Shown piece by piece: positions 784 through 30,222 of a stretch of 64,000 bases of DNA. The stretch lies in NCBI GenBank assembly GCA_050729815.1, contig JBOHLV010000102.1, positions 12,772 to 76,771 of the forward strand, read 5' to 3'. The stretch comes from Stellaceae bacterium. GTDB lineage: Bacteria > Pseudomonadota > Alphaproteobacteria > ATCC43930 > CGMCC-115725. The notes under the pieces are model-generated. The model searched no databases, was not told the DNA's origin, and was given only the letters and a program-made list of their open reading frames with translations. Numbering within the stretch: the first letter of the stretch is position 1; each line of letters starts with the position of its first letter. The translations under genes and the position numbers were made by a program.

Positions 784-2253
784 ATGTGGAGACCGGAACA
801 GCGCATCCGATACAGCCCCGCCGCCGGCCGAATACCGAGCCGAGCGGAAGCAGCCGCCTCGCGTCTCTTCTCGCCGGTCACCGTGGGGCCGATCACGCTG
901 GCGCAGCGGACCTGGGTGCCGGCCATGGTGCCGTGGCGCGCGACCGAAGAGGGTTTCGTCACCGACGAGGTCCTCGACTGGTATGCGCGGTTCGCGCGCG
1001 GCCGTCCCGGTGCCATGGTGGTCGAAGCGACCGGCATCCGGGACATCGCGAGCGGCCCCTTGCTGCGCATCGGCCACGACCGTTTTCTCCCCGGACTTCA
1101 AAAGCTGGTCGAGACGGTGCGGCGTGAAAGCGGTGGCGAGACCCGGCTCTTCATTCAGATCATCGATTTTCTCGCGATCCGCCGGCGTCCCGAGCGCGGC
1201 CGTTTCCTGACGCAATTCCTGGGCATCACCGAGGGGCACCGCCGAGCGCTCGGCGAGCGGCTCAGCGACGACGAAATCCGCGCCCGTTTGATGGCGCTCT
1301 CGCCGGCGGAATTGCGCGGCGTGCTGACGGCCGGCGAATGGGAGGCGCTGGAGTCGGGCTATCGCGAGCACGTAACCGACATGGCGTTGCGCCAGATCGC
1401 CTCTCTGCCGACGGTGTTGCCCGATCTCTTTGCCGATGCCGCCGAGCGGGCGCGTCGCGTCGGCTTCGATGGGGTCGAGTTGCATTACGCCCATGCCTAT
1501 ACGATGGCGTCGTTCCTGTCGGCCACCAACGATCGTAACGACGGGTATGGGGGGCCGCGGGAACATCGGGTGCGCCTGCCGCTCGAAGTCTACGATGCGG
1601 TGCGCCGCCGGGTCGGACAGGATTATGCCATCGGCTGCCGCTTCCTTGCCGAGGAAAGCATCGCGGGCGGCAGCACCCTCGACGATGCGGCCTATTTCGG
1701 TGTCGAATTCGCCCGGGCGGGGATGGATTTCCTCTCGACCTCCCGCGGCGGCAAGTTCGACGACGCGAAGCAGCCGGCGGTCGGTGCCGCCGCCTATCCC
1801 TATACCGGGCGCAGCGGCTATGAATGCATGCCGCAATATCTCTCGGACGAGCGGGGGCCCTTCGGCCGCAACATGGCGCCGACCAAGACGATCCGCGACG
1901 CGGTGCATGCCGCCGGTCTCGCTGTGCCGATCGTCTGTACCGGCGGCATCCATAATTTTGAGATGGCGGAGCGGGCGCTGGTGGAGGGCGTCTGCGACAT
2001 CGTCGGCGCGGCACGACAGTCGCTCGCCGATCCTGATTGGTTCCGCAAGATCGAACTCGGTCTCGGCGATCAGGTGCGACGCTGCGAATACACCAATTAT
2101 TGCGAGGGTTTGGACCAGAAGCATAAGCCCGTGACGTGTCAGCTCTGGGATCGGGACGCGCTTGATGAGCCGGGGGCGCGCCTCACCCGCGACGGACGCC
2201 GCCGTCTCGTCGCGCCCGACTGGCAAGCGCCGGTCAGCGCCGCGGAATCTTGA
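784..2253 (+). CDS. Old Yellow Enzyme-family NADH:flavin oxidoreductase with C-terminal Cys-containing extension
   Basis: LFSPVTVGPITLAQR N-terminal region and GFDGVELHYAHAYTMASFLS match the OYE/FMN oxidoreductase core. The tail contains CEYTNYCEGLDQKHKPVTC. The start is uncertain (ATG 784 is the only in-frame start upstream of the conserved N-terminus). Confidence 0.8.
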   Translation: MWRPEQRIRYSPAAGRIPSRAEAAASRLFSPVTVGPITLAQRTWVPAMVPWRATEEGFVTDEVLDWYARFARGRPGAMVVEATGIRDIASGPLLRIGHDRFLPGLQKLVETVRRESGGETRLFIQIIDFLAIRRRPERGRFLTQFLGITEGHRRALGERLSDDEIRARLMALSPAELRGVLTAGEWEALESGYREHVTDMALRQIASLPTVLPDLFADAAERARRVGFDGVELHYAHAYTMASFLSATNDRNDGYGGPREHRVRLPLEVYDAVRRRVGQDYAIGCRFLAEESIAGGSTLDDAAYFGVEFARAGMDFLSTSRGGKFDDAKQPAVGAAAYPYTGRSGYECMPQYLSDERGPFGRNMAPTKTIRDAVHAAGLAVPIVCTGGIHNFEMAERALVEGVCDIVGAARQSLADPDWFRKIELGLGDQVRRCEYTNYCEGLDQKHKPVTCQLWDRDALDEPGARLTRDGRRRLVAPDWQAPVSAAES

Positions 2254-3838
2254 TCCCCGCCGCCTCGCGGTCCCAGGTCGCGGCTGTCACCCCACGCTCG
2301 CGCAGCTTGAACTTCTGAATCTTGCCGCTTTCCGTCGCCGGCAGGGTATCGCAAAACTCGATATAGCGCGGCACCGCAAAATAGGGCATGCGCGGCGCGC
2401 AGAAACGCACAAGGTCGGCGGCGTCGAGCACGCCGCCCGAGTGCAGCACTATCGCGGCCATCACCTCATCCTCGGCGAGGTCAGAGCGGACCGGAAACAC
2501 GGCGGCTGTCGCGACCTCGGGATGGCTCAACAACACCTGCTCAACCTCGAATGAGGAGATGTTCTCGCCGCGCCGGCGAATGGCGTCCTTCAGCCGATCG
2601 ACGAATTTGAAATAGCCGTCGCGATCGCGGATCACCCGGTCGCCGGTATGGAACCAGCCGTCGCGCCAGGCCTCGGCGGTCTTTTCCGGCGCCGCGAAAT
2701 AGCCCCTGGCGAAGGCAAGCGGCTCATCCGCGCTGAGGATGAGTTCACCCTGCCCGCCATCGGCAACGTCGCGATCCCGGTCATCGACGATGCGCGCGGC
2801 GAAGCCGGGGCAGACGCGGCCCATGAGTCCGGGCCGCTGCCCTTCGATCCCGGTGCCGATGACGAAGTTGGTCTCCGTCGAGCCATAGCCATCGAGAAGA
2901 TGAATACCGGTGCGCCGGGTAAACTCTTCGTGGAAATGGCCCGGCACGCCGGGCGCCAGCGCGATTGGGACGCGGTGCGCCCGTTCCTTGGGATCGGGCG
3001 GGCGCGACAGCAGGATCGGCACCATGGCGCCAAGCAGATAGGCCACGGTGGCGCCGCGCCGCGTCAGCCCATCCCAGAAACGCGATGCGGAAAAGCGCGG
3101 CTCAAAGATCGCGGTTGCGCCGGTGATTAGTGCCTGGAAAAACGTGTTGAGCGCGTTGGTGTGGAACAGCGGCAGGGTCGTGCACAGCACGTCGTCGGCG
3201 TCAATGCCGAGGAGATGCGCGGTATGGACGCCCCACCAAAAATATTGTGCGTGAGGGCAGCAGACGCCCTTCGACGGCCCGGTCGTGCCGGAAGTGTAGA
3301 GCACCGCGAACAAATCCTCGGGCCGGGGCGAGGCTGTATCGACGGCCGCGCCAAGCGGCGGCATTGATCGCGCGATCGCGGGTGGCGTTACGCCCTCGCC
3401 GGGCGCGTCGATGAGCCAGATGGCTTCAAGTGGCAAGGCGGCGAGATCGAGGTGATCGAGCGACGACAGGAATTCGGCTTCGATCACCAGGAGTCGCGCC
3501 GCCGAATTGCCGAGAATATGCTGAAGCTGCGCGCCGCGCGACGCGACATTGATTGGCACCAGGATCGCACCAAGCCAGCCGCAACCGAGCATCGTCTCGA
3601 TGAACTCGGGCCGGTTGGAAGAGATGAGCGCGACCCGGTCGCCGGGTTTGATGCCGGCGGCCAGAAGGCGTCCCGCCGCCCGCGCGGCGATGACGGGCGC
3701 TTCCCCAAAGCTCGCTTGCCAGGCGCCGGCCGCGACCAGGGGCTTGTCGCCGAATCGTTCCGCCTGGCGGCGCAGCAACGCGGGAAGGCATCGCTCCTCC
3801 GGAGAAAAAGGTAGCGCCCGAAGACGGTCTTCTTGCAT
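2234..3838 (-). CDS. AMP-dependent acyl-CoA synthetase/ligase
   Basis: 534-aa ORF with AMP-binding motif YTSGTTGPSKGV and GDRVIRDRDGYFKFVDRLKD. Its start overlaps the stop of the upstream gene by 1 nt. Confidence 0.85.
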   Translation of the reverse strand: MQEDRLRALPFSPEERCLPALLRRQAERFGDKPLVAAGAWQASFGEAPVIAARAAGRLLAAGIKPGDRVALISSNRPEFIETMLGCGWLGAILVPINVASRGAQLQHILGNSAARLLVIEAEFLSSLDHLDLAALPLEAIWLIDAPGEGVTPPAIARSMPPLGAAVDTASPRPEDLFAVLYTSGTTGPSKGVCCPHAQYFWWGVHTAHLLGIDADDVLCTTLPLFHTNALNTFFQALITGATAIFEPRFSASRFWDGLTRRGATVAYLLGAMVPILLSRPPDPKERAHRVPIALAPGVPGHFHEEFTRRTGIHLLDGYGSTETNFVIGTGIEGQRPGLMGRVCPGFAARIVDDRDRDVADGGQGELILSADEPLAFARGYFAAPEKTAEAWRDGWFHTGDRVIRDRDGYFKFVDRLKDAIRRRGENISSFEVEQVLLSHPEVATAAVFPVRSDLAEDEVMAAIVLHSGGVLDAADLVRFCAPRMPYFAVPRYIEFCDTLPATESGKIQKFKLRERGVTAATWDREAAGIKIPRR

Positions 3839-4818
3839 CAGGATAGCTCCGGCGGCCGTGCCAGCCCGAAATGCCGCAGCAGCGCGACGAAGGCGGCGAG
3901 GCGATCGGCCCGATAGGCATCGACATCGATGCGCTCGTAATTGAAAAAGCCCTGGCCGGTCTTGAGGCCGATCCTTCCTTCCGCCATGTTGCGCCGGATG
4001 ATCGGCGGCGCGGCATAGCGCGGATCGTCAAGCGCTTGCGTCAGATATTCGCTCGCATAGTGGAGGATATCGCCACCGCCCCAATCGATGAATTCGAGCA
4101 GCCCTAATACGGCGAAGCGAAAGCCGAAGCCGAATTTGACCGCCTTGTCGATGTCCTCGGCGCTCCCGACGCCTTCCTCGACCATGCGGGCCGCTTCATT
4201 CATGGCGAGCGCCTGGATGCGCGGCACGATATAGCCCGGAGACGCCGCGCAAACGACCGGAACTTTGCCGACTTCTTCCAGAATATGCCGCAAACTTGCC
4301 GTTGCTGCTGGGTCCGTCGCCACCCCGGGCGAGAGTTCGACGAGCGGTACGAGATAGGGCGGGTTCAGCCAATGCGCATTGAGGAACCGCTCGGGACGGA
4401 CGACCGCATCGGCCAATTCCTCCACGAGGATCGTGGAAGTGGTGGAGGCGATGATCGCCTCCGCCGGTGCGAGCGGCGATATCCGCGCCAGAATCTCGCG
4501 CTTCAGTGCGACGATCTCCGGCACGCCCTCGAAGACGAACTGGGCCGTGCTCAATGCCACGGCGGTATCGGCCTCGGCATCGATCCGCACCCGCGCCAAG
4601 ATGCGGTCGACATCGCGCTCGGCGAAGAGGCCAAGACCGGAGAGCGTTGCCAGAGTATCGCGTATCTCGTCGCGCGCTTCCCGGGCGAGTCTGGCGAAAT
4701 CATCACCGTCGCGCGACTTCACGTCGATCAGCGCGACCTCATATCCTGCATAGGCGAAGACGATGGCGATCCCGCGACCCATGCGTCCGGCGCCGATGGC
4801 GGCAATGCGCGGCTTCAC
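3838..4818 (-). CDS. 3-hydroxyacyl-CoA (3-hydroxybutyryl-CoA-type) dehydrogenase
   Basis: Rossmann N-terminus IAAIGAGRMGRGIA and the HWLNPPYLVPLVE region are typical of HADH. I trimmed the ORF-track start (4920) to GTG at 4818, which forms a GTGA overlap with the upstream stop. Confidence 0.8.
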   Translation of the reverse strand: MKPRIAAIGAGRMGRGIAIVFAYAGYEVALIDVKSRDGDDFARLAREARDEIRDTLATLSGLGLFAERDVDRILARVRIDAEADTAVALSTAQFVFEGVPEIVALKREILARISPLAPAEAIIASTTSTILVEELADAVVRPERFLNAHWLNPPYLVPLVELSPGVATDPAATASLRHILEEVGKVPVVCAASPGYIVPRIQALAMNEAARMVEEGVGSAEDIDKAVKFGFGFRFAVLGLLEFIDWGGGDILHYASEYLTQALDDPRYAAPPIIRRNMAEGRIGLKTGQGFFNYERIDVDAYRADRLAAFVALLRHFGLARPPELS

Positions 4819-5906
4819 GCGAAACCCCGGTCGAGAAAATTTTGGAGCGCGGTCAGGTCCAGATCGCCGAGACCGATGCTGGCGAGGCTGCGTCCGGTCG
4901 CCGCGAAATCTTCGCCGCAAATCGCCGCACCGATGGCAAGAAACCCGTTGATGAGCGGGGCCTCAACCCTGGCGAGGCGCGCGAGCGAGGACAAAAGGGC
5001 AAGGCCGAGCGCCACATCCTCCCGCATATAGCGATGCTCGGTAAGGACGATATGCTCCCGCCAATCGCCCGATTCGGTCAGCTTGTCATGCGATCCGCGA
5101 CCGTACATCCATTCCTCGCCCTCCCTCGCATAATGGTGAGCGAGCGGAAAGTGCGGCGGCGGATATTGGAGCGCGATGCGAAGCGCGATGCGTTCGGCAT
5201 CGAGCGCGTCGGTGACACGGCGGACCGCGGGCTGCGTGCCCTCCTGATGAATATCCCACCGTTCGAAATGTTCGAGCGGCGCCGCATTCATGGTGATGAG
5301 CGGCGGATGAATGACGGCCCCCGCATTCATCAGCGCCCCCGAGAGCGCGTCGCCGCACGGCTCGATCACACCGGGGAATGCGCGGTTAATGATATCGAGC
5401 GCGTGCGTCGCGCGACGCATCGGAAACACGCCGGTCGGCAGCCGCTTGCCACGGGCTGAGATGCGCACCTCGAACGGCCCCTGTTTGCGGCAGAGCCAAG
5501 GTAGCGTGCCGCTCTCGGCGAAGGCGACGTCGGCATGATTGCCGGCCTCGCGCACGATCTTCGCCATCAGGACCGAACCGAACGTACCCGGCGGCAGGAA
5601 TACGATTTGGCCATCCGCCAAATGGCGCGCGAGGGCCGACGCGATCGCCTCTTGCGCGAAGGCTGGCACAGGACAGAGGATGAGCGCCGCGCCCGCGACC
5701 GCCGCGCCGATCTCATCGGTGATGAGCGCCGGCCGCGCCTCTTGCCGGCCGCGATAATCGATGACGCCGATGGTGCCGCCCGCCGTGCGATGGGCGGCAA
5801 CCGCGTCCCCGTCGCGCCGCCAGAGGCGTACCTCATGGCCGGCAAGGGCAAAATCGCCCGCGGCCGCGAAGGACCCGTTGCCTCCTCCCAAAACGGCGAT
5901 CTTCAC
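4815..5906 (-). CDS. NAD/NADP octopine/nopaline dehydrogenase-family oxidoreductase
   Basis: 363 aa. The N-terminus MKIAVLGGGNGSFAAAGDFALAGHEVRLW is typical of the opine dehydrogenase family. Substrate unknown. Confidence 0.65.
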   Translation of the reverse strand: MKIAVLGGGNGSFAAAGDFALAGHEVRLWRRDGDAVAAHRTAGGTIGVIDYRGRQEARPALITDEIGAAVAGAALILCPVPAFAQEAIASALARHLADGQIVFLPPGTFGSVLMAKIVREAGNHADVAFAESGTLPWLCRKQGPFEVRISARGKRLPTGVFPMRRATHALDIINRAFPGVIEPCGDALSGALMNAGAVIHPPLITMNAAPLEHFERWDIHQEGTQPAVRRVTDALDAERIALRIALQYPPPHFPLAHHYAREGEEWMYGRGSHDKLTESGDWREHIVLTEHRYMREDVALGLALLSSLARLARVEAPLINGFLAIGAAICGEDFAATGRSLASIGLGDLDLTALQNFLDRGFA

Positions 5907-5920
5907 GAAAGGCGTTCCTT

Positions 5921-6655
5921 TCAGATGGTGAGGCTGCCGATGCTCGATCCGCCGCAGACGAACAAAGTCTGGCCGGTGACGAAGCCCGATTCGGGCGCCG
6001 CAAAAAACATGACGGCATTGACGATGTCTTCCGGCCGGCCAAGCCGTTTCACCGGGATCGCCGCGGCGAGTTTTGCCTCGCGTTCGCTACCGGCCGGCAC
6101 GATCTCGTGAAACATCCGGGTGCCGGCGATCGGGCCGGGCGCCACCATGTTGACCGTGATGCCGAAGGGCGCGAGCTCCAAGGCCCAGGTGCGGCCCATG
6201 CCGATGATGCCGGCCTTGGTTGCGGAATAGGCGGTGCGGCCAATCGTGCCAAGCGCGGCGCGCGACGAGATCATGACGACGCGGCCGAATTGCCTCTCCT
6301 TCATGCCGGGGAGCGACGCCTGCAACAGGATGAGGGCGGCACCGAGATGGAGCTGCGCGAGGTTCTGCACATCCTCGGCGGTCGCTTCGTCGATGAGCTT
6401 GTGCCGCGTCACGCCGGCCGAATGGATGAGATGCGATACCTGGTGCCGTGCCGCAATATCGGCGGCGACGCGTTGCGTCGCGGTGATGTCGATGAGATCG
6501 ATCTCGATCGCTTCGAGCCGCGGATGCGATAGCGCCGGCTTTTCGCGGGCGAGAGAGATGACGGCGAAGCCGCGATCCAGCAATCGCGCGACGATCGCGG
6601 CGCCGATGCCGGCCCCGCCGCCGGTGACGATCGCGGTGCCCGACGGCGCGCTCAT
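5921..6655 (-). CDS. short-chain dehydrogenase/reductase (SDR)
   Basis: TGGGAGIGAAIV cofactor motif and YSATKAG (YxxxK). The start is set at ATG 6655, which forms an ATGA overlap with the upstream stop. The longer ORF-track version has an Arg/Pro-rich spurious extension. Confidence 0.85.
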   Translation of the reverse strand: MSAPSGTAIVTGGGAGIGAAIVARLLDRGFAVISLAREKPALSHPRLEAIEIDLIDITATQRVAADIAARHQVSHLIHSAGVTRHKLIDEATAEDVQNLAQLHLGAALILLQASLPGMKERQFGRVVMISSRAALGTIGRTAYSATKAGIIGMGRTWALELAPFGITVNMVAPGPIAGTRMFHEIVPAGSEREAKLAAAIPVKRLGRPEDIVNAVMFFAAPESGFVTGQTLFVCGGSSIGSLTI

Positions 6656-7455
6656 GTCCCGGCTACCAGGGCAAGGACGCGGAGCGGACTGCCCGATCCC
6701 TTCCGCACCTTCAAGGGCGCGGCGAAGATCACCGCGCCGGTCGGCGGCAGGAGGTCGAGATTGGTGAGGCATTGGAGGCCGTAACGGCCCTTGCCATGCA
6801 TGTAGTAATGCGCGGGATAGGGCGGATTGAAATGATTGGCCTGCCCCCCATCGGTGCCGATCGTCTCGGTGCCGAAACCATGGACATCGCGCTCCTCGAC
6901 CAGCCATTTGACCGCTTCGGGGCAGGGGCCCGGCGAATGTGCGCCGTCATCGCCCATATTGGCGTAATCGCGATAAGGCAGCTTCGACCAGTCGGTGCGC
7001 AGCAGCACCCAATTGCGCGCCGGGATGCGGCCATGTTTCGCCTCCCACGCCGTGATATCGGCGACGGAAAGCTCATAATCGGGATTGGCCGCCGATTGCT
7101 TGCTGATGTCGATGACGCATGCCGGCGCGATGAACGCCGAGACCGGGATCGTATCGACCGAATTGTTCGGCAGATCCTTGCCCGAGACCCAATGGATCGG
7201 CGCATCGAAATGCGTACCGGTATGCTCCCCCATCGAGAGATTGTTCCAGTACCAGGCCGGCCCGCGCTCGTCATAGCGCGAGATTTCCTCCATCCGGAAC
7301 GGCGCGCATTGGCCGAGTTCCGGCGGCATGACGATGGTCGGAAATTCCGGCGCGAGGGTGTGGGTCAAATCGATCACCTTGACCTCGCCAGTCGCAACCG
7401 CGGCGGCGAGGCCGAGGAGGTCGGCGGTGAGGGCGCCCTTCCTGTTGCCGCTCAT
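6652..7455 (-). CDS. cyclase-family protein (kynurenine formamidase / isatin hydrolase fold)
   Basis: 267 aa with the metal-binding motif HTGTHFDAPIHW that is characteristic of the putative-cyclase/arylformamidase family. Confidence 0.8.
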   Translation of the reverse strand: MSGNRKGALTADLLGLAAAVATGEVKVIDLTHTLAPEFPTIVMPPELGQCAPFRMEEISRYDERGPAWYWNNLSMGEHTGTHFDAPIHWVSGKDLPNNSVDTIPVSAFIAPACVIDISKQSAANPDYELSVADITAWEAKHGRIPARNWVLLRTDWSKLPYRDYANMGDDGAHSPGPCPEAVKWLVEERDVHGFGTETIGTDGGQANHFNPPYPAHYYMHGKGRYGLQCLTNLDLLPPTGAVIFAAPLKVRKGSGSPLRVLALVAGT

Positions 7456-8693
7456 GTGCCAAGCTCCCGTTCGAGTGCCTTCGGATTGGTGGCGAGCCGT
7501 CCGCGCACATCGTTCGCGATGTCGCCGACATAGACATCCTCAAGGCCGCGGCGCAGCGCATCGATCGTCGCATTGGCGAGCGCCGCCGGTGTCACTTTGG
7601 GCGGCGGCACGGTCTGGTACCATTCGGTGTCGAGTGGGCCGAAGAACATGTTCACCACCTTGACGCCGCCGGGGCGCAGTTCGGCGCGCAGGCACTGCGC
7701 CGCCGAAAGACATGCCGCCTCGGTCGCCGAAAAGGCGCCGAACGCCGGCCAGTTCATCAATGCAAAGACCGACAAGAGATTGACGAGCGCCGCGGCGGAA
7801 TTGACGCCATCGGCGCCGCGGGCACGCAGGGTCGGGCCGAAGGCTTGGGCGAGGCGCGTCAGGCCGAGATAGCGGATGTCCATCTCCTCCCGCGCCACGT
7901 TGAGGCCCTTGCGCTCGATGAGGCCGCCGGCGCGGACATGCTCCGCCGTGTTGATAAGGATATCGACGCGGCCACCGATCTCGCCGGCAATGTCCTCGAC
8001 CGAGACGCTGTCCGTCATGTCGAGCGGCACGATCTCGACCCGCGGAATTTCGCGCAAACTCGCCTCGCCCGGGAATGGCTTCCACGGATCGGCGATGCCG
8101 ACGAAGATGATGCCCGCCTCTGCCGCGGACATCGCCTTTGCCATCGCCTGGCCGACGGCATTGCGCCCATCGCTGATGAGAACGCGCCGGAATTTCGGAT
8201 CACAAGTCAGCTCGCGCCATTCGGGATCGTCGGCCATGTGAAGCGTATCCTGTTCGGGAAGCGCGATCGCCACCGCCTCGCCGCTGCGGTCGAGCTTCAA
8301 CGCCAGCCGCACGCGCGCCCCCTCACGCACATCGCCATGAAGATGGGTCACGATGGAGGGGCCGCAATCGAGCACGACGACCCCGACCCGCCACGGCATG
8401 CGCTCGCGAAAAAAGACATCGATCGAGGTGCGGATCGTGGTCTCGGCGAGCAGCCTGCCGCCGTTCGGCACATCCTCGAACGGCAGGCGCGGCGACAGGC
8501 ATTTGGGACAGGCATCGCGCGGCGGATAGATGATTTCGTGGCAATCGCCGCACACCTGAAGGGCGAAACGTCCCTCCGCCGCCGCCGCGGTCAGGCCCTG
8601 CGCGGTGCGGCTGCGCGTCTTCAGCGGCAGGAGCGGCTGTCGCGTCTTCTTGAGGGGGTCCTTGCGTTTCGGCTTCGTCAAGGGTTCGGTCAT
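7452..8693 (-). CDS. DUF35 (Zn-ribbon + OB-fold, acyl-CoA-associated) domain fused to a degenerate SDR-like domain
   Basis: The N-terminal half has CGDCHEIIYPPRDACPKC (CxxC...CxxC) plus an OB-fold region. The C-terminal half aligns by eye to SDRs, but it has ISDGRNAVGQ in place of TGxxxGxG and FSATEAA in place of YxxxK. Confidence 0.7.
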   Translation of the reverse strand: MTEPLTKPKRKDPLKKTRQPLLPLKTRSRTAQGLTAAAAEGRFALQVCGDCHEIIYPPRDACPKCLSPRLPFEDVPNGGRLLAETTIRTSIDVFFRERMPWRVGVVVLDCGPSIVTHLHGDVREGARVRLALKLDRSGEAVAIALPEQDTLHMADDPEWRELTCDPKFRRVLISDGRNAVGQAMAKAMSAAEAGIIFVGIADPWKPFPGEASLREIPRVEIVPLDMTDSVSVEDIAGEIGGRVDILINTAEHVRAGGLIERKGLNVAREEMDIRYLGLTRLAQAFGPTLRARGADGVNSAAALVNLLSVFALMNWPAFGAFSATEAACLSAAQCLRAELRPGGVKVVNMFFGPLDTEWYQTVPPPKVTPAALANATIDALRRGLEDVYVGDIANDVRGRLATNPKALERELGT

Positions 8694-9868
8694 GCGTTTG
8701 CTCCTTGAAGCAAAACGGCGCCGCTCGCAAGGCCGCGATCATAGGTGATCATGCCGAAGCCGGAAACGAGGCCGATCCGTGCATCCGGCACCGCCGCGCC
8801 AATGGTTTGTCCTGTCACCTGGCGCAGCGCCTCGACGAGGCCGAGATAGCCGCCCGCGGCGCCGGCCTGTCCGACCGACAACTGCCCGCCCGAGACGTTG
8901 TGCGGGAACGTCCCGTCCCAGGTCAGGCTATGGGCGCGGACGAATTCCGCGGCTTCGCCTTTCTTGCAGAAGCCCAGATCCTCGATCTGCATCATGCAGA
9001 TGACGGGATAATCGTCATAGGTCTGAAGGAAATCGACATCAGCGGGCGTGATGCCGGCCATGCCATAAAGCTCGTCCAGATCGAGCGCCCAGCCGCCGCG
9101 ATACTGCACGGGATCGTCGGAAAAGGCGTTGTGACGCTCAATGGTGCCAAGAATCCGCGCCGCCGGCAGATGGAGCGAGCGCGCCACATCCTCGCGGCAA
9201 ACGAGGAATGCCTCGGCGCCGGCGCAAGGCATGACGCAATCGAACAGATGGATCGGGTCGGAGATCGCGCGCGCATTCATATACTCGTCGAGTGTCAGCG
9301 GCTGTTTCATCAAGGCATGGGGAAAGGTGAGGGCGTTGTCGCGCTGCGCCACGCAAATCTTGCCGAAATCTTCGCGCGTCGCGCCATAGCGGTTCATGTA
9401 ATGCCTGGTGATGAGCGCGAAATTGGCGTTGGGACCGCCGGAGCCATAGGGATAGACCGCATCCTGCGCGAACCGCGAAAACGTCGTCAGCATGTTGCGG
9501 AAGGAATCGACATGGTTGGTGTCGCCGGCGACACAGGCGACGAACTCGGCATCGCCCGCCTGTACCGCGCGCGCGGCGCGGCGCAACGCGACCACCCCCG
9601 ACGCGCCACCCAAGGGCACATGATCGAGCCAGCGCGGGCTGAGCCCCAGATGCTGCGTCAGCCCGATCGCGGTATCGGGGCCGAGCGTAAAGCTCGATAC
9701 CGAAAGCCCGTCGATGTCGCGAGGGCTGAGGCCGGCGCGCGTCACGAGATCATGCAGCGCGCGGCCGATCCACCAATGGGCGCTGTTGATGGAATAGCGC
9801 CGGTAGGGGACCGTCACCGGCACCGCGACAGCGACGCCGTCATAGGATTGACGTGCGGTTTTCGCCAT
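8690..9868 (-). CDS. thiolase-superfamily protein (SCP-x/Ltp-like), apparently lacking thiolase catalytic Cys/His
   Basis: About 392 aa with a thiolase-like fold by eye. The nucleophile region reads LGGASGVVALRRAARAVQAG (Gly where thiolases have Cys). The C-terminal region reads NVSGGQLSVGQAGAAGG (Gln where GHP has His). Start taken at ATG 9868 (MAKTARQ). Confidence 0.75.
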   Translation of the reverse strand: MAKTARQSYDGVAVAVPVTVPYRRYSINSAHWWIGRALHDLVTRAGLSPRDIDGLSVSSFTLGPDTAIGLTQHLGLSPRWLDHVPLGGASGVVALRRAARAVQAGDAEFVACVAGDTNHVDSFRNMLTTFSRFAQDAVYPYGSGGPNANFALITRHYMNRYGATREDFGKICVAQRDNALTFPHALMKQPLTLDEYMNARAISDPIHLFDCVMPCAGAEAFLVCREDVARSLHLPAARILGTIERHNAFSDDPVQYRGGWALDLDELYGMAGITPADVDFLQTYDDYPVICMMQIEDLGFCKKGEAAEFVRAHSLTWDGTFPHNVSGGQLSVGQAGAAGGYLGLVEALRQVTGQTIGAAVPDARIGLVSGFGMITYDRGLASGAVLLQGANA

Positions 9869-9873
9869 CCCGG

Positions 9874-10356
9874 TCAGACGAACAACTGAAGGCTGGGAAA
9901 CGCCGCATCGCAATTGACGAGATCGACCCGCTTCAACCGGATTTTGAGCGCGCCGTCGATGACGGTGAGATGGTGCGTCGCCCAGGCGGCGAGCAGCATC
10001 TGATCGTCGCCTCGTGTCTCGACGTAATGGAGCGGCGTCCAGGTGACATAGAGGTTTGCCGCGTCGTCGCGCCGCTCGACCAGCGGCGTCTGCAACAGAT
10101 GGTGCGAGCGGCTCGGCGGCTTCTGGCTGAACGTGCGGTCGCTCTTGAGGCGCTCGACCCGAATTCGAAGCAGCAGCTTGTCCTCATACATAAGCGAGGC
10201 GACGAGCCGCGGGTCGGTCTGACCCCATTCGAGCGGCATCCAGTAATGGCTGTCCTCGGCGAAGAGGTCGAGCCACTCGTCGAATTGCCGCCGGTCGAGG
10301 AAGCGCGATTCGCCGATGACGAACTGGATGAGGTCGGAATCGCTCGGCGCGGTCAC
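9874..10356 (-). CDS. aromatic ring-hydroxylating oxygenase beta (small) subunit
   Basis: 160 aa, SnoaL-like. FLDRRQFDEWLDLFAEDSHYWMP is typical of Rieske oxygenase beta subunits. There is a 4-nt overlap with the alpha subunit stop. Confidence 0.8.
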   Translation of the reverse strand: MTAPSDSDLIQFVIGESRFLDRRQFDEWLDLFAEDSHYWMPLEWGQTDPRLVASLMYEDKLLLRIRVERLKSDRTFSQKPPSRSHHLLQTPLVERRDDAANLYVTWTPLHYVETRGDDQMLLAAWATHHLTVIDGALKIRLKRVDLVNCDAAFPSLQLFV

Positions 10357-11666
10357 GGGCTCACATTCATGAATTTGAGCCAGGCGCGGAACTGGTTGCG
10401 CATCTGCGCCTCCGAGGTGCCATCGACGACGACATCGTGCCGCGCGTCTTCCCCGGCCTCATAGCGGCGGTCGAGATTGACCCATTCATTGCCACCGGAA
10501 AGAAGGCCGCGCTGCGCCCGCTCATACATTTCAAGATCGTCATGCCCGACGACCGAGGTCGGCGCATTGACGAGGCGATTGTACATGAGCGTCCGTTCGA
10601 GCAGCAGGTCGGGCGCATCGACGAGGCGGAAGGTCCAGGATTCGACAAGCGTCCGGTCGGGCGCCAGCGGCTTGAAGAGCCGCAAGAGCTGGATCGGCCC
10701 CTTGATCATCAGGTTCGGGAAATAGATGGTGTTATGGCGCGCCTCGTCCATGATCGCCCTGGCGCGGTTGTCGCCATAGGCGGCCGTCATCTTCTCGAAA
10801 TAGCCAGGCACGGCCGAATAATCGGAATGGATCGAATGGCTGACGCCGGTGTGGCCATGGCCGTTCTTCCAGACGCGGATGCCCATGGTCTCGAAGAACT
10901 CATAGGAACTCATGAAGGGGGCATAGATTTCAACCGCCATCGGCTTTGGCGTGCCGGGCGGCGCTTTCTGCCAGACCTCGACCGCTTTTCCGGCCGAGGA
11001 TTCATGGACGATCATCGGATGGCATGTATCGGTCTGGTTCTCGACCAGCATCTTCCAATTAGAGCGATGCACATAGCGCAAGACGCCGCCCGCGACCTTG
11101 AGCCGGCCGACCGGCGAGCGGTCGATCATGTTGTCGAAACTGGAAAGGGACGGTCCGAAAAAGTCGTCGAAGGAGATGCCTTCGGGGTTGAGCCGGGCGA
11201 AGACGAAGCCGCGATAATTTTGGACCAAACCGACCGAAACGAGTCCCGCGGCGGCATGAGTGTGGGACAAATCGGTCCCGTCATAGCCCTTCTTCAAGGG
11301 CACGGCGAGCAGGCTGCCGTCGGTGCGATAGCACCAGGCGTGATAGGGGCAGCGAAAGAACTTGCCGGTGTTGCCCGTGATGTCGGTGACGATCTGCGTG
11401 CCCTTATGGGCGCAACGGTTGTAGAGCACACGGATGCTGCCGTCGGTGTGGCGCACCATGATGACGGACTCGCGGCCGATCGTGGTCGTGAAGTAATCGC
11501 CGGAATTCGGCACCTGGCTCTCATGTCCGACATAGACCCAGGTGGTGGCGAAAAGCTGCTCCATCTCGAGATCGAAAATCTCGGGATCGGTATAGAGATC
11601 GCGATGCACTTCGCGCTCCCGCACCAGCGCCGCGATGGCATCGGGATGGCCACGGTATCGGGTCAC
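10353..11666 (-). CDS. Rieske [2Fe-2S] ring-hydroxylating oxygenase alpha subunit
   Basis: Rieske motif CAHKGTQ...CPYHAW and mononuclear iron motif DTCHPMIVH. Start set at GTG 11666, which forms a GTGA overlap with the iorB-like stop. Confidence 0.85.
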   Translation of the reverse strand: MTRYRGHPDAIAALVREREVHRDLYTDPEIFDLEMEQLFATTWVYVGHESQVPNSGDYFTTTIGRESVIMVRHTDGSIRVLYNRCAHKGTQIVTDITGNTGKFFRCPYHAWCYRTDGSLLAVPLKKGYDGTDLSHTHAAAGLVSVGLVQNYRGFVFARLNPEGISFDDFFGPSLSSFDNMIDRSPVGRLKVAGGVLRYVHRSNWKMLVENQTDTCHPMIVHESSAGKAVEVWQKAPPGTPKPMAVEIYAPFMSSYEFFETMGIRVWKNGHGHTGVSHSIHSDYSAVPGYFEKMTAAYGDNRARAIMDEARHNTIYFPNLMIKGPIQLLRLFKPLAPDRTLVESWTFRLVDAPDLLLERTLMYNRLVNAPTSVVGHDDLEMYERAQRGLLSGGNEWVNLDRRYEAGEDARHDVVVDGTSEAQMRNQFRAWLKFMNVSP

Positions 11667-13198
11667 AGGAAGCTCTCGATCGTCTGAACGGCGCCGTCCA
11701 GCGCGATGCCATCGGCATCGGCGAGCGCCGCCTCGCGCAGGCGCCGCACCCAATCCGCGGCGTCGGCACGCCCGTCGAGCCGCCGCGCCATCGCCATCAC
11801 GGTGGCGAATTTGGTCGCGCCGCTGGCATGGGTGTCGGAATAGCCTTTGACGAGGCGGTGCAGTTCAAGGATTTCGATCGCGAGGGCGCGGTCGTGTCCG
11901 GCGGCGTCACGCGCCGCGGCGAGCCAGGCGTCGCGATGCGCCAATTCACGCCTATGACGCAGCGTCCAGCGGCGATAGCCCCGCATCCCGGCAAGAAGGT
12001 AGAGGACGAGATACCAATGCAGCTTTCCCGTCTCGACCCGGCGGCCATGATTGACGAGACGTTCGAGCGCCCGGTAGAGCCAGGGCAGGCGTTCGATCGC
12101 GCGGCCGATGAATGCCGGCATCAAGCCGCAGATCTCCGCCATGCCGGGGTGCATGTATTCGGTGGTATAGACGATCTGGTCGCTGCGCAGGCCGACCTCG
12201 CGCGCGACCCGGTCGAAGCGGCTCGCGCGGGTCTTCAAATCGGCGACGCGGATGACATCGTCATAGGCCATGGCGCGGGCGATGTTCTTTGCCGCGGCGC
12301 GGATCAGGGCATGGTCAGGGTCAGCGTCGAGCACGGCGAACGGCTCGACGAGATCGAGATAGTCGGCGCCATAGGCGACATCCTGAAAATCGACGACGCG
12401 GCGAAGCCCCGCCGCGACCACGCCATGGACAGGCTCGGGCAATTTCCGCGCCCGATCGACAAGCGCATCGAATCGCGCATCGCCGACCGGCTCAAGCGCG
12501 GGATAAAGCTTGCTGTCGGCCGGGTCCGGCGGCGGTACCGGCGCGGTATCGCCCACCGCGTCGCAGCCTTGGGCAAAGGCGCGCAGGCTGGCCGTGACGC
12601 CGACCCCGCCGGCGCGGATCGTGTCTTCGAAATCGGCGCGCGAAAACGGCAAGGCGCCTGACCCGGCGAGGGCGCCGAACAGCACCGCCGAGATATGGCT
12701 CTCGCTCGCCTCGGCGATCGCCGCCATGTCGAAGGCGATGAAGCGTTTCGCCGCCCGCTCCGCCGCGGCATAGACATCGCGTGCCGCGCCGGCGCCGTCA
12801 CCCGGCACGATCTTTTCGGCGACGGCATAGGCGCGGTGCGATGACGCGATGAGGGTCGTGCGGTCGGGCGTGACGAGGCCGCGCGTGATCGCCCGTCCGG
12901 CCTCCATCAGTTCGGCGCCGATGACGATATCGACTTCGCCCGGCGCCGGCATCAGCGACAGCACCGGCCGCCGCGCCGAGCCGTCCGGTTCCAAGGCCTC
13001 GACATAATAGAGCGTGGCGCCGGTGCGCTGCGCCACGCCGGGCACCGAGGTCGATTGCGCGAGATAGGTATGGCGCTCGAACAGCGCCAAGAGCCAGTCG
13101 ACCAGCACGCCGCCGCCTTGTCCGCCCATCGCCAGCACCGCGATGGCGAGCGGCCGGCGGGTATCGAGGTGGGTTTCGGCCTGGGTCAGCGTGTCCAT
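11663..13198 (-). CDS. indolepyruvate/2-oxoacid:ferredoxin oxidoreductase, beta-like subunit (long form)
   Basis: 511 aa. The N-terminus AIAVLAMGGQGGGVLVDWL...STSVPGVAQRTGATLYYVE is typical of IorB-family proteins. Confidence 0.8.
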   Translation of the reverse strand: MDTLTQAETHLDTRRPLAIAVLAMGGQGGGVLVDWLLALFERHTYLAQSTSVPGVAQRTGATLYYVEALEPDGSARRPVLSLMPAPGEVDIVIGAELMEAGRAITRGLVTPDRTTLIASSHRAYAVAEKIVPGDGAGAARDVYAAAERAAKRFIAFDMAAIAEASESHISAVLFGALAGSGALPFSRADFEDTIRAGGVGVTASLRAFAQGCDAVGDTAPVPPPDPADSKLYPALEPVGDARFDALVDRARKLPEPVHGVVAAGLRRVVDFQDVAYGADYLDLVEPFAVLDADPDHALIRAAAKNIARAMAYDDVIRVADLKTRASRFDRVAREVGLRSDQIVYTTEYMHPGMAEICGLMPAFIGRAIERLPWLYRALERLVNHGRRVETGKLHWYLVLYLLAGMRGYRRWTLRHRRELAHRDAWLAAARDAAGHDRALAIEILELHRLVKGYSDTHASGATKFATVMAMARRLDGRADAADWVRRLREAALADADGIALDGAVQTIESFL

Positions 13199-13201: not shown

Positions 13202-15352
13202 TCAGGCGAAGGAGATCCTGCGCCGCTCCCGGCGGCGCTGGAGCGCGGCGATCATTCGGGTCCGATACCGCGCCATAACGCGATCGAGCCGGCTCGGATT
13301 GTGGATAATGTCGGCGCGATAGAAGGAGGGGCAGAGCGCCGCCGCCTCCGCCACCTCGCCGCAATTGCCGCAGCCGACGCAAGATTGGTCGATCGCCGCC
13401 ACCGGCTCGTCCTTCAAGGGGTCGCTCGTGTGCTTTACCGACAGCGACGGGCAGCCCGACAAGCGGATGCAGGCATGGTCGCCGGTACAGACATCCTCAT
13501 CGACGCCGAAGCGCTGGCGCACCATGCGCTTGCCCTCTTTTACCGCCTTCTGGAACAACGGCTTCACCCGGCGCTGCTTGTTGAGCATACATTCCGAGGA
13601 GGCGACGATCACCTTCGGCCCGTCGCTCTTGTCGGTCAGCGCCTTCTTCAAGGTGTCGCGCATCTTCGCAACATCATAGGTGCGATCGATCTGGCGCACC
13701 CATTTGGCGCCGACGCCTTGGACCGCCTTCGCGATCGGGTGGAGGGTCGAGCGCGACCGGTTGGCCGCGCGGGACGACGGGATGTCCTGCCCGCCGGTCG
13801 CCGCCGAATAGAAATTGTCGACGACGAGCACGACGCCGTCATTCTTGTTGAAGACGGCATTGCCGATGCCGGAGGTAAGGCCGTTATGCCAGAAGCCGCC
13901 ATCGCCCATCATTGCGATCGCGCGCTTGCCCTCTTTCACATTGAAGGCGGAGGCGGAAGCGGGGCCGAGGCCATAGCCCATCGTCGTCGCGCCGATATTG
14001 AAGGGCGGCAGGATGGAGAACAGATGACAGCCGATATCGGCGGCGATGTGATGGGGGCCGAGTTCGCGCTCGACCAGCTTCATTGCGGCGAAGATCGGCC
14101 GCTCCGGGCAGCCGATGCAGAATCCCGGCGGCCGTGCCGGCACCGCTTTTGCCAAGGCCTTGCGATGCGCGTCATCGAGCGCGGGCGGCGCGTTGGGCGC
14201 GCGGATCGCCGGTGCCAGCGCGTCCGCGGCAAAGCGCCGGGCGAAGGCGCCAACGCCCGACGCCATCACCGCGGCGGTATATTCCCCCGCCATCGGCAGC
14301 ATGCCCTTGCCGAAGATTTGAGTCTGCAAATCGGCCCGGCGCAGGATCTTGTGCAGCGCCTCTTCGATGAAATCGGGCTGACCTTCCTCGACCATCAGCA
14401 CCGCCTTCTTGCCGGCGCAGAATTCCGCCACCTCCTCCGGCACCAGGGGATAGGTGACGTTGAGGACATAGAGCGGCACGCGGCTCGCGCCCCAGATATC
14501 GGCAAGACCCAAACCCTGAAGCGCGCGCAGCACGCCGTTATACATGCCGCCTTGGAGGATGATGCCGATCTCGGACAGATCGCCCGGCACGATCTCGTTG
14601 AGCCGGTGCTCCTTGATGAATTTGACCGCGGCGGGCCAGCGTTGCTCGACCTTCTCCTGCTCATGAAGGTAGGAGGCGGGCGGCAGCACGACGCGGTTGG
14701 TGTCGCGCCGCGGCGCGGCGAGCGCGTCCTTCACCGTGAATGAGGGCGGCCGGTTGTTTTTGGCGGGAAAGCTGCCGGTGACGTGGCAGGCGCGGATACG
14801 CACCTCCAGCATGACCGGCGTGTGGGAGGCCTCCGACAGTTCGAACCCCGCCTCGACCGCGCGCACGATGCTGGGCAGATCGGGCTTCGGGTCGAGCAGC
14901 CAGATCTGCGACTTCATCGCGAAGGCATGGCTGCGCTCCTGCATGATCGAGGAGCCTTCGCCGTAATCCTCGCCGATGATGACGAGGGCGCCGCCGGTGA
15001 CGCCGCCCGAGGCGAGATTGGCGAGCGCGTCCGCCGCGACATTGATGCCGACCGGCGCCTTGAAGGTGACGGCGCCGCGGATCGGATAATTGACCGAGGC
15101 GGCGAGGGTCGCCGCGGCCGCGGCTTCGTTGGCGCTGGTCTCGAAATGAACGCCGAGCTCGGCCAGGATGTCCTGCGCGTCGGCAAGCACGTCCATCAGA
15201 TGCGAGATCGGCGCGCCCTGATAGCCGGCGACATAGCCGACCCCGGATTGCAGAAGTGCCTTGGTGATCGCGAGAATGCCCTCGCCACGGAATTCCGCGC
15301 CGTCGCCGAGCCGTAAATCCTGTACTTCCCGCGCGAAGGATCGCTCCGCCAT
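13202..15352 (-). CDS. indolepyruvate/2-oxoacid:ferredoxin oxidoreductase, alpha-like (TPP and 4Fe-4S) subunit
   Basis: 716 aa with TPP motif GDGGFWHNG and ferredoxin-type cluster CVGCGNCGEVAEAAALCP. It is the first gene of the long minus-strand operon. Confidence 0.85.
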   Translation of the reverse strand: MAERSFAREVQDLRLGDGAEFRGEGILAITKALLQSGVGYVAGYQGAPISHLMDVLADAQDILAELGVHFETSANEAAAAATLAASVNYPIRGAVTFKAPVGINVAADALANLASGGVTGGALVIIGEDYGEGSSIMQERSHAFAMKSQIWLLDPKPDLPSIVRAVEAGFELSEASHTPVMLEVRIRACHVTGSFPAKNNRPPSFTVKDALAAPRRDTNRVVLPPASYLHEQEKVEQRWPAAVKFIKEHRLNEIVPGDLSEIGIILQGGMYNGVLRALQGLGLADIWGASRVPLYVLNVTYPLVPEEVAEFCAGKKAVLMVEEGQPDFIEEALHKILRRADLQTQIFGKGMLPMAGEYTAAVMASGVGAFARRFAADALAPAIRAPNAPPALDDAHRKALAKAVPARPPGFCIGCPERPIFAAMKLVERELGPHHIAADIGCHLFSILPPFNIGATTMGYGLGPASASAFNVKEGKRAIAMMGDGGFWHNGLTSGIGNAVFNKNDGVVLVVDNFYSAATGGQDIPSSRAANRSRSTLHPIAKAVQGVGAKWVRQIDRTYDVAKMRDTLKKALTDKSDGPKVIVASSECMLNKQRRVKPLFQKAVKEGKRMVRQRFGVDEDVCTGDHACIRLSGCPSLSVKHTSDPLKDEPVAAIDQSCVGCGNCGEVAEAAALCPSFYRADIIHNPSRLDRVMARYRTRMIAALQRRRERRRISFA

Positions 15353-15491: not shown

Positions 15492-15535
15492 AAATTTTAG
15501 ATTTGAAATAACCCGGCGCGGGGTGGGGCGGACCG

Positions 15536-16324
15536 ATGCGGATTTTGTGGCAGAGTTTTATCGATCCGGCGGGGAACGCCGCCTATTTCGAGCGCCTCAA
15601 CGCCTACCTTAACGACATTGCGGCGCCGGACATGACGATCGATACCGTGGGGATGTCGCCACCCGACCGCGATTTTGGACGCTTGAGCGAATTTCGCTGC
15701 GCGATTCTGGCGGTGGACAATGCCATCGGTGCCGAGAAGGACGGCTATGACGCGTTCGTTCTCGGCCATTTCCAGGACCCGGGTCTTTATGAGGTGCGCG
15801 CGGCGGTGCATATGCCGGTCATCGGTACCGGCGAGGCCTCGCTCTTCGCCGCGGCGCAACTCGGCCGCCGCATCGGCCTCGTCTCGATCGATCCGGTATT
15901 CGAGGTCTGGCATCTGGAACAGGCCGAGCGCTATGGCCTTGGCGGCCGCGTCGTCGGGGTCTCCGGACTCGGCGCGGTGCCGGCGGATTTCGCTGCGGCC
16001 TTCGGCGGTGACGATGCGGCCTATAGGCGGATGCGGGCCTGGTTCATCGATTGCGCCCGGCCGCTTATCGACAAAGGCGCTGATGTCGTGATCCCTGCGG
16101 GGGTGCTGCCGGGCCTGCTTTTGGCGCGCGAGCGCGGGTTCAAGATCGGCCATGCGCCGGTCGTCAATTGCGCCGCGGTCGCACTCAAGGCCGCCGAGAT
16201 GTGGGTGGCGCTCCATCGCCTCGACGGGATCGAGCCGAGCCGCGGTCCGAGCTTCGCGCTGGCACCCCCGCGCGCGGTCGCGGATTTCCGGCAACTGGTG
16301 GCAGAGGGCCGCCGCGATGGTTGA
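15536..16324 (+). CDS. Asp/Glu/hydantoin racemase-family protein
   Basis: 262 aa. The overall pattern (DAFVLGHFQDPGL ... PVIGTGEASL ... ADVVIPAG) resembles hydantoin racemase / maleate isomerase-family proteins. Activity unknown. Confidence 0.6.
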   Translation: MRILWQSFIDPAGNAAYFERLNAYLNDIAAPDMTIDTVGMSPPDRDFGRLSEFRCAILAVDNAIGAEKDGYDAFVLGHFQDPGLYEVRAAVHMPVIGTGEASLFAAAQLGRRIGLVSIDPVFEVWHLEQAERYGLGGRVVGVSGLGAVPADFAAAFGGDDAAYRRMRAWFIDCARPLIDKGADVVIPAGVLPGLLLARERGFKIGHAPVVNCAAVALKAAEMWVALHRLDGIEPSRGPSFALAPPRAVADFRQLVAEGRRDG

Positions 16325-16325
16325 T

Positions 16326-18330: not shown

Positions 18331-18354
18331 TCCGTTGAGGCGAAGGCCGGCCCG

Positions 18355-30136: not shown

Positions 30137-30222
30137 CGCGCGCTCCTTCACATTTTCGCGCCGCTGCTCTATCGTGCCCGACGAAGCATTTTATATCTAA
30201 AGTGTTTTGGAAATAAAGTGGC

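Follow-up and report, generated by a model that had tools for sequence, protein, structure and literature searches.

Two overlapping genes on the minus strand of a Stellaceae genome assembly (GenBank GCA_050729815.1, contig JBOHLV010000102.1, positions 12,772 to 76,771 of the forward strand; this stretch of 64,000 nucleotides is the window hereafter) encode a thiolase-fold protein (gene A) and a protein in which a DUF35 module, consisting of a zinc ribbon and an OB fold, is fused to a degenerate short-chain dehydrogenase/reductase (SDR)-type domain (gene B). We are close to certain that the surrounding genes form an indole-3-acetic acid (IAA) degradation (iad) locus, with genes A and B as its iadG and iadH. 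A preliminary description of the pair, made from the letters of the window, missed this context, namely that the two genes belong to a published auxin locus in which both are genetically required. The pathway, the iadG and iadH genes and the requirement for them are already known; the combined explanation of the pair that we find probable on balance is that of a retro-aldolase lacking the thiolase cysteine, together with its DUF35 partner, which carries a non-redox SDR module.

The iadG-iadH pair and its products

The published order of the locus is iadA (IorA), iadB (IorB), iadC, iadD/E (Rieske), iadF (ligase), iadG ("thiolase"), iadH ("SDR"), iadI (cyclase) and iadJ (SDR), and the order in the window of IorA, IorB, Rieske alpha, Rieske beta, A, B, cyclase and SDR fits it as iadA-B-(C)-D-E-(F)-G-H-I-J. 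The same gene order is found in the loci of Achromobacter pulmonis, Bordetella, Aromatoleum and Bradyrhizobium; in A. pulmonis, in whose genus the iad nomenclature had been established, it reads IorA-IorB-Rieske alpha-Rieske beta-ligase-A(73%)-B(59%)-cyclase-SDR-solute-binding protein, with tblastn identities to the window in brackets. The published loci of Variovorax paradoxus CL14, Achromobacter and Bradyrhizobium share both gene order and neighbors with the window, but they contain an iadC reductase and an iadF-type ligase, whereas the window lacks both and has another ligase downstream. The lengths of IadG, IadH and IadI in the window (392/413/267 residues) are close to those in CL14 (390/417/270 residues), where IadG is annotated as "acetyl-CoA acetyltransferase" and IadH as "short-chain alcohol dehydrogenase"; at 417 residues the latter is far too long for a plain SDR. 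The CL14 IadG and IadH are reported to be 66% and 60% identical to those of an unnamed comparison genome. In the tables of the paper that gives the CL14 lengths, the Ruegeria gene flanked by COG1878 and COG0183 is assigned to COG1545, which is the COG of DUF35, and the main text of the iad locus paper makes no mention of iadG, iadH, iadI or iadF.

The stop codon of gene A and the start codon of gene B share the bases ATGA, with an AAGGAG Shine-Dalgarno sequence eight bases upstream, and ATGA is likewise shared by the stop of gene B and the start of iadI and by the stop of iadI and the start of the IadJ-like SDR gene. Because all three junctions are overlaps of this kind, iadG, iadH, iadI and the iadJ-like gene are predicted to form four translationally coupled genes. 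Gene A is counted from an ATG; an upstream TTG start would run into the preceding gene, and the orthologues begin close to the ATG. Among solved structures the IadI orthologue matches isatin hydrolase A (5NNB) with an E value of 1.5e-119, and also 5NMP and 4J0N.

The sole Pfam match of gene A is Thiolase_C_1 (4e-32), and against the NCBIfam models for SCP2-type thiolases and "lipid-transfer proteins" it reaches 100-200 bits where the curated cut-offs are 400-750. Gene A is thus a thiolase fold, but one outside every curated NCBIfam family. Its catalytic positions were read from phmmer alignments to PDB structures. G88 of gene A (LGGASG) falls opposite the nucleophilic Cys of 7YVY, a true thiolase (ACASG), and Q334 (GQAG) opposite the His of the GHP motif, which bears out the Gly and the Gln that had been read by eye at these two positions. 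No C-terminal catalytic Cys was found in the PDB alignments, the segment in question being SGFGM, and the motif YDDY stands where thiolases may have HDCF. G87, G88, YDDY, GGQLS and GQAG are invariant in all 83 syntenic orthologues of gene A. As the nucleophilic Cys, the His and the acid/base Cys are all missing, gene A is predicted to be incapable of thiolysis.

The top solved homologues of gene A are CtSal (9MYR, 4e-49) and then TcLtp2 (6OK1, 7e-44), both of them thiolase-fold retro-aldolases that were crystallized with DUF35 domains. CtSal, the bile-acid C5 side-chain aldolase that works with CtShy, resembles IadG in the Gly at the nucleophile position and in the catalytic Tyr of a YDxY motif (G88 and Y284 of gene A align to Gly89 and Tyr302 of CtSal), and the GGQLS.GQ.G segments of the two proteins are nearly identical. 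CtSal forms an obligate complex with its DUF35 partner, and in the window the DUF35 domain is encoded by the overlapping downstream gene. According to the CtSal paper, an enzyme with Gly in place of the nucleophile cannot carry out thiolysis; in Sal the Tyr of YDxx (Y302-D-C-Y) is indispensable as the base and Cys304 acts as the acid, and Ltp2 uses Y294-D-H-F together with Tyr344. The steroid C3 side-chain aldolase complex TcLtp2-ChsH2 likewise combines a thiolase fold without the catalytic Cys with a DUF35 partner; it has YDHF and the catalytic acid Tyr344 and releases propionyl-CoA, whereas IadG has YDDY. In gene A, Asp286 occupies the place of Sal Cys304 and of Ltp2 His296, and the segment aligned to Ltp2 Tyr344 is GQAGAAGG, which holds no Tyr.

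Because gene A has neither Tyr344 of Ltp2 nor Cys304 of Sal and carries an invariant YDDY instead, it would be neither strictly Ltp2-type nor strictly Sal-type. The proposal in the preliminary description of an Ltp2-type enzyme therefore stands as regards kinship with thiolase-fold aldolases that have a DUF35 partner, and falls as regards the type, since Tyr344 is missing and YDDY replaces YDHF. With Tyr284 as base and Asp286 as acid, YDDY may represent a third active-site solution among the thiolase-fold aldolases, which are a small family. That gene A is an aldolase and not a thiolase we regard as very likely.

IadG might instead be a genuine ketothiolase (EC 2.3.1.16) that uses another nucleophile, for example the invariant Cys211 or Cys215, the two invariant cysteines of its FDCVMPC motif; databases and literature indeed annotate it as "acetyl-CoA acetyltransferase / thiolase". 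We consider this highly improbable. Cys, His and Cys are all missing at the aligned catalytic positions, every NCBIfam thiolase model lies far below its cut-off, and the "DC" motif, which the aldolase Ltp2 shares, does not belong to a thiolase active site. Moreover, CtSal with the same Gly was shown to be incapable of thiolysis, and the substrate discussed below is a tertiary alcohol that cannot yield a 3-oxoacyl-CoA. BbsAB (7PXP) and the archaeal thiolase/HMG-CoA synthase complex (6ESQ) also pair an SCP2-type thiolase fold with a DUF35 partner, but in them the catalytic Cys and His are still present, their reaction is thiolysis or Claisen condensation, and they match gene A with E values of only ∼1e-25.

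A similar operon logic is seen in the ipf cluster of pIBU218 (L086 13228-16782), where genes for Rieske alpha, Rieske beta, a thiolase-like protein (IpfD), a DUF35 protein (IpfE) and a CoA ligase occur together, and where IpfD and IpfE are said to detach an acyl-CoA side chain from a ring that has been oxygenated in the ibuprofen pathway. IpfD is 31% identical to gene A and has the Gly at the Cys position as in IadG, but its motifs YDAF and GGGHLS differ; it too looks aldolase-type and not like a thiolase. In RefSeq it is annotated as a hypothetical protein. Unlike IadH, IpfE is a stand-alone DUF35 protein of 132 residues with no SDR, and a BLASTP comparison of IpfE with gene B gave an E value of 0.11, which is not significant, leaving a kinship at the Pfam level only. 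A further difference is that in the ibuprofen pathway the dioxygenase acts on the CoA ester.

Gene B matches zf-ChsH2 (9e-10, residues 36-70), OB_ChsH2_C (1e-10, residues 74-131) and adh_short (6.5e-14, residues 171-361) in Pfam, with PF12172 and PF01796 both exceeding their cut-offs, and together with the ATGA overlap these domains confirm the fusion of DUF35 to an SDR-like half in an overlapping gene. None of its four zinc-ribbon Cys residues varies among 33 distant representatives or among 79 orthologues. In the CtSal system an active MaoC hydratase carries the DUF35 domain on its C-terminal side and the zinc site is of the Cys3His type, whereas IadH has the domain at its N-terminus, with a Cys4 site and with the degenerate SDR as fusion partner. 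The SDR motifs of gene B were aligned to E. coli FabG, two canonical SDRs of the window and SDRs of the PDB. In the cofactor loop LISDGRNAVG stands opposite LVTGxxxGIG (S-D-G-R-N-A-V-G for TGxxxGxG), further on INTAE stands opposite VNNAG (NTAE for NNAG), and AFSATEAA stands opposite xYxxxKAx (FSATE for YxxxK), with F321 at the Tyr and E325 at the Lys position. The corrupted cofactor motif and the Phe and Glu in place of Tyr and Lys, noticed earlier by eye, are thus reproduced, and proper alignments place neither a Cys/His/Cys triad in gene A nor a Tyr/Lys pair in gene B at the catalytic positions.

These replacements extend across the 79 syntenic IadH orthologues. The cofactor loop has the consensus [ST]-D-G-[RK]-x-A-V-G, in which the first Gly is changed to Asp in 73 and the Gly at the sixth position to Ala in 55. 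Position 321 is F in 27, Y in 24, W in 11, H in 7, T in 5, L in 2, V in 2 and S in 1, and position 325 is E in 48, Q in 13, K in 6, M in 4, H in 3, N in 2 and A, G and I in 1 each; the Tyr and Lys of YxxxK occur together in none of the 79. In betaproteobacterial iad loci the dyad region reads W-S-A-S-K or W-S-A-S-M. Classical SDRs such as 5U4S and FabG share with the SDR half of IadH the fold, the Asp of LDxTD, the first Asn of NNAG and the Ser, but not TGxxxGxG or YxxxK.

The mean column conservation of the SDR-like half is 0.74, compared with 0.73-0.77 for the DUF35 part, and 47 of its positions are invariant; conserved TDGR and NTAEH motifs replace the former cofactor motifs in place. An AlphaFold2 model of gene B (predicted local distance difference test 92.6, predicted template modeling score 0.92) is a single rigid two-domain body, and the best fold match of the modeled SDR half is the NADP-bound SDR 5U4S (target-normalized TM-score 0.93, root mean square deviation 1.9). 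Because the SDR-like half is as conserved as the DUF35 half, carries new motifs and yields a confident rigid model, it appears to be a maintained pseudo-enzyme domain and not a decaying one. We judge it likely that this half is redox-dead.

Occurrence of the pair and of related cassettes

The exact gene B protein is annotated in a Stellaceae metagenome-assembled genome, and the DUF35::SDR architecture of ∼413 residues is present in more than 120 clusters at 90% identity. An exhaustive search of 50%-identity representatives with gene B gave 186 matches at E <= 1e-30, dozens of them full-length, down to ∼34% identity. Among cultured strains, the gene A/B pair lies on complete plasmids of Sulfitobacter, Roseibium (Labrenzia), Shinella, Agrobacterium and others. 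When species-representative genomes were scanned for loci with an alignment of gene A as the query, at least 599 stretches matched, of which at least 586 encode a relative of gene A as confirmed by tblastn, and the fusion lies beside that relative in 78 of the 80 genome loci kept. In a tblastn comparison of the window proteins with 82 loci, genes A and B and the cyclase gene sit side by side and point the same way in all loci where the contig reaches far enough. The pair architecture is common in Alpha- and Betaproteobacteria.

The preliminary description knew of no published account of a DUF35::pseudo-SDR architecture. We too found none in the literature covered here, although the DUF35::SDR architecture itself proved to be common. 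It had also named a sequencing error joining two genes as a danger. The probability that the fusion is an assembly or sequencing artefact is practically nil, as this is refuted by the 90%-identity clusters, the complete plasmids and the genome loci just described, and no evidence for an artefact was found.

Two distant fusion proteins, P0171 and P0168, have canonical SDR motifs (TGxxGGIG and YCASK), and the overlapping upstream partner of each is of the Gly-Gly/YDDY/GQxG type. Neither lies in an iad context: P0171 (L083 2949-6557) has a family-III CoA-transferase and a TctABC transporter as neighbors, and P0168 (L087 1-2607) has an AMP ligase. The cassette of a YDDY thiolase-like protein and a DUF35::SDR fusion appears on this evidence to be older and wider than the iad locus, and the SDR of the fusion was probably active originally, its decay being specific to the iad clade. 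We also considered the dead SDR as a relic of a complex between an active 3-hydroxyacyl-CoA dehydrogenase and a true thiolase; this was rejected, as the partners of P0171 and P0168 are Gly-Gly/YDDY/GQxG proteins and not Cys-thiolases.

Gene neighborhood in the window

Table 1. Positions in the window of the iadG-iadH pair, its domains and key residues, and the neighboring genes
Feature	Position	Strand	Description
Gene A, IadG orthologue	8690-9868	minus	Thiolase fold (SCP2-thiolase-like), 392 residues from ATG
Key residues of gene A			G88 (Cys position), Y284-D285-D286-Y287, Q329, Q334
Gene B, IadH orthologue	7452-8693	minus	DUF35 (zinc ribbon + OB fold) and degenerate SDR-like domain, 413 residues
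DUF35 module of IadH, residues 36-135	8289-8588	minus	Cys4 rubredoxin-like zinc ribbon (C48, C51, C62, C65) and OB fold
SDR-like domain of IadH, residues 169-413	7455-8189	minus	adh_short
Key residues of gene B, SDR half			S174-D175-G-R-N-A-V-G181, N248-T-A-E251, S308, F321, E325
IadI orthologue, isatin hydrolase	6652-7455	minus	Cyclase / kynurenine-formamidase fold, 267 residues; Pfam Cyclase
IadJ-like canonical SDR	5921-6655	minus	TGGGAGIG, YSATK; Pfam, translation, alignment
Octopine-dehydrogenase-like gene	4815-5906	minus	
3-Hydroxyacyl-CoA dehydrogenase	3838-4920	minus	
AMP-forming acyl-CoA ligase	2234-3838	minus	Pfam AMP-binding
Rieske oxygenase beta (IadE-like)	9874-10356	minus	Pfam Ring_hydroxyl_B, synteny
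Rieske oxygenase alpha (IadD-like)	10353-11753	minus	Pfam Rieske, Ring_hydroxyl_A; true start probably further downstream
IorB-like 2-oxoacid oxidoreductase beta (IadB-like)	11663-13198	minus	
IorA-like 2-oxoacid oxidoreductase alpha (IadA-like)	13202-15352	minus	
AMP ligase of anthranilate-type cluster	23002-24639	minus	
Acyl-CoA dehydrogenase of anthranilate-type cluster	24636-25934	minus	
Enoyl-CoA hydratase of anthranilate-type cluster	25802-26611	minus	
SDR of anthranilate-type cluster	27102-27974	minus	
FAD-monooxygenase::Old-Yellow-Enzyme fusion	27878-30151	minus	757 residues

The iad genes of the window and their neighbors are listed in Table 1. No iadF-type ligase was found between Rieske beta and iadG, where there is a gap of 5 nucleotides (9868-9874), and no iadC-type reductase was found among the open reading frames of the window of at least 220 residues. 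The acyl-CoA ligase downstream is 65-72% identical to the ligase of Reyranella/Stellaceae-type loci and 31-37% identical to the ligase at the iadF position; it is the probable functional counterpart of IadF, though of a different ligase type from the iadF that most loci have between iadE and iadG. Its arrangement with a 3-hydroxyacyl-CoA dehydrogenase and an octopine-dehydrogenase-like gene is common to Reyranella and Stellaceae loci. The longest open reading frame of the IadJ-like SDR (5921-6907, 328 residues) overlaps the isatin hydrolase gene by ∼250 nucleotides, and the start codon is almost certainly the ATG at 6655-6653, giving a protein of 244 residues.

Upstream of the iad genes, a minus-strand open reading frame at 15497-16474 (325 residues, rich in Arg, Ala and Pro, with no Pfam match) is a shadow of the real gene on the opposite strand, a plus-strand open reading frame of the Asp/Glu/hydantoin-racemase family at 15536-16324, and because of this gene the apparent tblastn conservation of the shadow frame in other loci is spurious. 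An alpha/beta hydrolase gene (16326-17132, minus strand) lies between the iad locus and a divergent transporter of the branched-chain-amino-acid ABC type (17182-21913, plus strand). This transporter is made up of a Peripla_BP_6 binding protein, two permeases and ATPases, and it is similar to the solute-binding system IadK for IAA uptake. Some 8 kb from the iad genes, a minus-strand cluster at 23002-30151 looks like a 2-aminobenzoyl-CoA (anthranilate) pathway cluster. The IadA/IadB-like genes match TPP_enzyme_C, POR and DUF6537 in Pfam and are of the indolepyruvate:ferredoxin-oxidoreductase type. Isatinate is an aryl-glyoxylate and hence a 2-oxoacid, and for this reason it is a possible IadA/IadB substrate; the oxidoreductase could turn it directly into 2-aminobenzoyl-CoA, which would feed the neighboring cluster.

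The side-chain step of the iad pathway

In V. paradoxus CL14, deletion of iadF, iadG, iadH or iadI leads to less anthranilate and to accumulation of C10H9NO4 (dioxindole-3-acetic acid). The CL14 preprint assigned the roles of IadG and IadH from annotation only ("resorted to annotated enzyme function"), the published labels being "ketothiolase" for IadG and "alcohol dehydrogenase" for IadH, and the word "aldol" is absent from its text. It leaves a further compound, C8H7NO3, unexplained ("not N-formylanthranilate"), and the published pathway calls IadI a "broad-activity amidase"; C8H7NO3 has the formula of isatinate. In the literature that we found on IadG/IadH, dioxindole-3-acetyl-CoA, retro-aldol chemistry and DUF35 with SDR, the pair is nowhere described as an aldolase, as Cys-less, as DUF35 or as a pseudo-SDR, although this coverage is incomplete and a description elsewhere remains possible. 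For the argument that follows, the gene requirement and the accumulating metabolite come from the literature, and homology, motif states, synteny and family-wide conservation were observed here; what we infer is an aldol-type reaction, the parts played by individual residues, a physical association of the two proteins and a loss of activity in the SDR domain.

A tertiary 3-hydroxyl cannot be oxidized to the 3-oxo group that a thiolase requires, and Ltp2 faces the same constraint at steroid C17. Dioxindole-3-acetyl-CoA is unfit for thiolysis for just this reason, as its hydroxyl sits on a quaternary ring carbon and cannot become a 3-keto group. Given this tertiary alcohol and the adjoining isatin hydrolase gene, the side-chain step is most likely a cofactor-free retro-aldol cleavage of dioxindole-3-acetyl-CoA to isatin and acetyl-CoA, which would need no reductant and no free CoA. 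Isatin as the product is backed independently by the coupled next gene, which encodes a close isatin hydrolase homologue, and the isatinate formula of the unexplained C8H7NO3 fits it as well. The logic is that of TcLtp2, which cleaves at a ring tertiary alcohol (C17-OH) to give a ring ketone and an acyl-CoA, whereas the substrate of CtSal is a steroid secondary alcohol and not, as proposed for IadG, an oxindole tertiary alcohol. With aldolases as the top homologues and a pathway that supplies such a substrate, the non-thiolytic retro-aldol cleavage of a 3-hydroxyacyl-CoA suggested in the preliminary description appears to be the best-supported reading.

In the mechanism that we propose, Tyr284 of YDDY would take the proton from the tertiary hydroxyl at C3 of dioxindole-3-acetyl-CoA; rupture of the C3-CH2 bond would then yield isatin and the enolate of acetyl-CoA, and Asp286 of IadG would protonate this enolate. 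A carboxylate acting on the alpha-carbon of acetyl-CoA is ordinary chemistry, as in citrate synthase. IadH would provide its Cys4 zinc-ribbon/OB (DUF35) domain as the bound partner that enzymes of this kind need, its SDR fold would be kept, conserved but outside redox chemistry, for a structural or docking task, and the isatin would be handed to the translationally coupled isatin hydrolase IadI. The preliminary description had likewise suggested docking or channeling as a possible task of the dead SDR.

Several points weigh against this proposal. The oxyanion-hole Gln161 of CtSal aligns to Pro146 of gene A, and Cys304 of CtSal cannot be replaced by Ala, Ser or His, so that the catalytic role of Asp286 is a proposal only. 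IadH retains as SDR remnants D225 (of LDxTD), N248 and Ser308 (in 71 of the 79 orthologues), which may leave it able to bind NAD(P). The window and CL14 proteins were compared only through their lengths, annotations and published identities. Finally, according to the preprint, the iadI deletion strain and the iadCDEFGH_JK2 expression strain build up C8H7NO2, a formula that fits dioxindole and not isatin, and the side-chain step is read there as a "reductive removal" involving IadH, which would require an active reductase. The C8H7NO2 could be explained by a host reductase acting on accumulated isatin.

This last point bears on the alternative in which IadG is an aldolase and the SDR half of IadH is a live, non-canonical NAD(P)H reductase that converts isatin to dioxindole, the "reductive removal" of the preprint. 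Besides the accumulation of C8H7NO2 in the absence of iadI and the dehydrogenase role given to IadH there, it can draw on dioxindole being one of the classical intermediates of the pathway in Bradyrhizobium and Variovorax, on the TGxxGGIG and YxxxK motifs retained in P0171 and P0168, by which the ancestral fusion was probably an active SDR, on the retained D225, N248 and Ser308 and on the NADP-bound SDR as the nearest match of the modeled fold. We nevertheless consider it unlikely, as the Tyr and Lys positions are variable and never filled together in the orthologues, an Asp takes the place of the Gly that contacts the pyrophosphate, and with isatin hydrolase as the next enzyme the reduction of isatin to dioxindole would be a detour requiring re-oxidation.

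The SDR-like domain might also have been repurposed, such that its Rossmann pocket binds the ADP moiety of CoA esters or its surface recruits IadF/IadI to channel the reactive isatin. The T-D-G-R and N-T-A-E-H motifs conserved at the old cofactor sites, the high conservation of the whole domain, the constant adjacency of iadG-iadH-iadI with overlapping stop and start codons and the finding of the preprint that the IadF-I intermediates are undetectable and appear channeled are all consistent with such a role. Modeling of CtShy-CtSal, by contrast, suggested flexible linkers that its authors judged inconsistent with direct substrate channeling, and we rate a specific repurposing of this kind as quite improbable. 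A broader scheme, which is possible but doubtful, would make the YDDY aldolase, the DUF35::SDR fusion and a CoA-activating enzyme a general and widespread cassette that cleaves acetate units off beta-hydroxy acids blocked for beta-oxidation. In that scheme an ancestral live SDR, joined via DUF35, would process the carbonyl product, with P0171 and P0168 as examples; it would have been silenced in the iad lineage so that isatin goes to isatin hydrolase, with the domain kept as the hub of an IadF-G-H-I metabolon that contains the isatin.

The retro-aldolase with a DUF35 partner and a non-redox SDR module remains the explanation that we favor. Relative to the literature found, what is new is the classification of the pair as an aldolase complex of the Sal/Ltp2 kind whose YDDY site sets it apart, the joining of a DUF35 at the N-terminus to a pseudo-SDR, and the pathway step as corrected on this reading, in which dioxindole-3-acetyl-CoA would yield isatin and acetyl-CoA. 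The published "dehydrogenase" IadH would then be mainly a DUF35 docking subunit with a degenerate SDR domain, and IadI is by homology an isatin hydrolase and not the published "broad-activity amidase". As IadG likely depends on IadH, the two would need to be co-expressed. IadH would also be a clear case in nature of a pseudo-enzyme domain that has been maintained. The iad locus is a route of auxin destruction in Variovorax and many other soil and marine bacteria and is being engineered into root commensals; if the proposed step is true, the stoichiometry predicted for this route changes, as neither reductant nor free CoA would be required.

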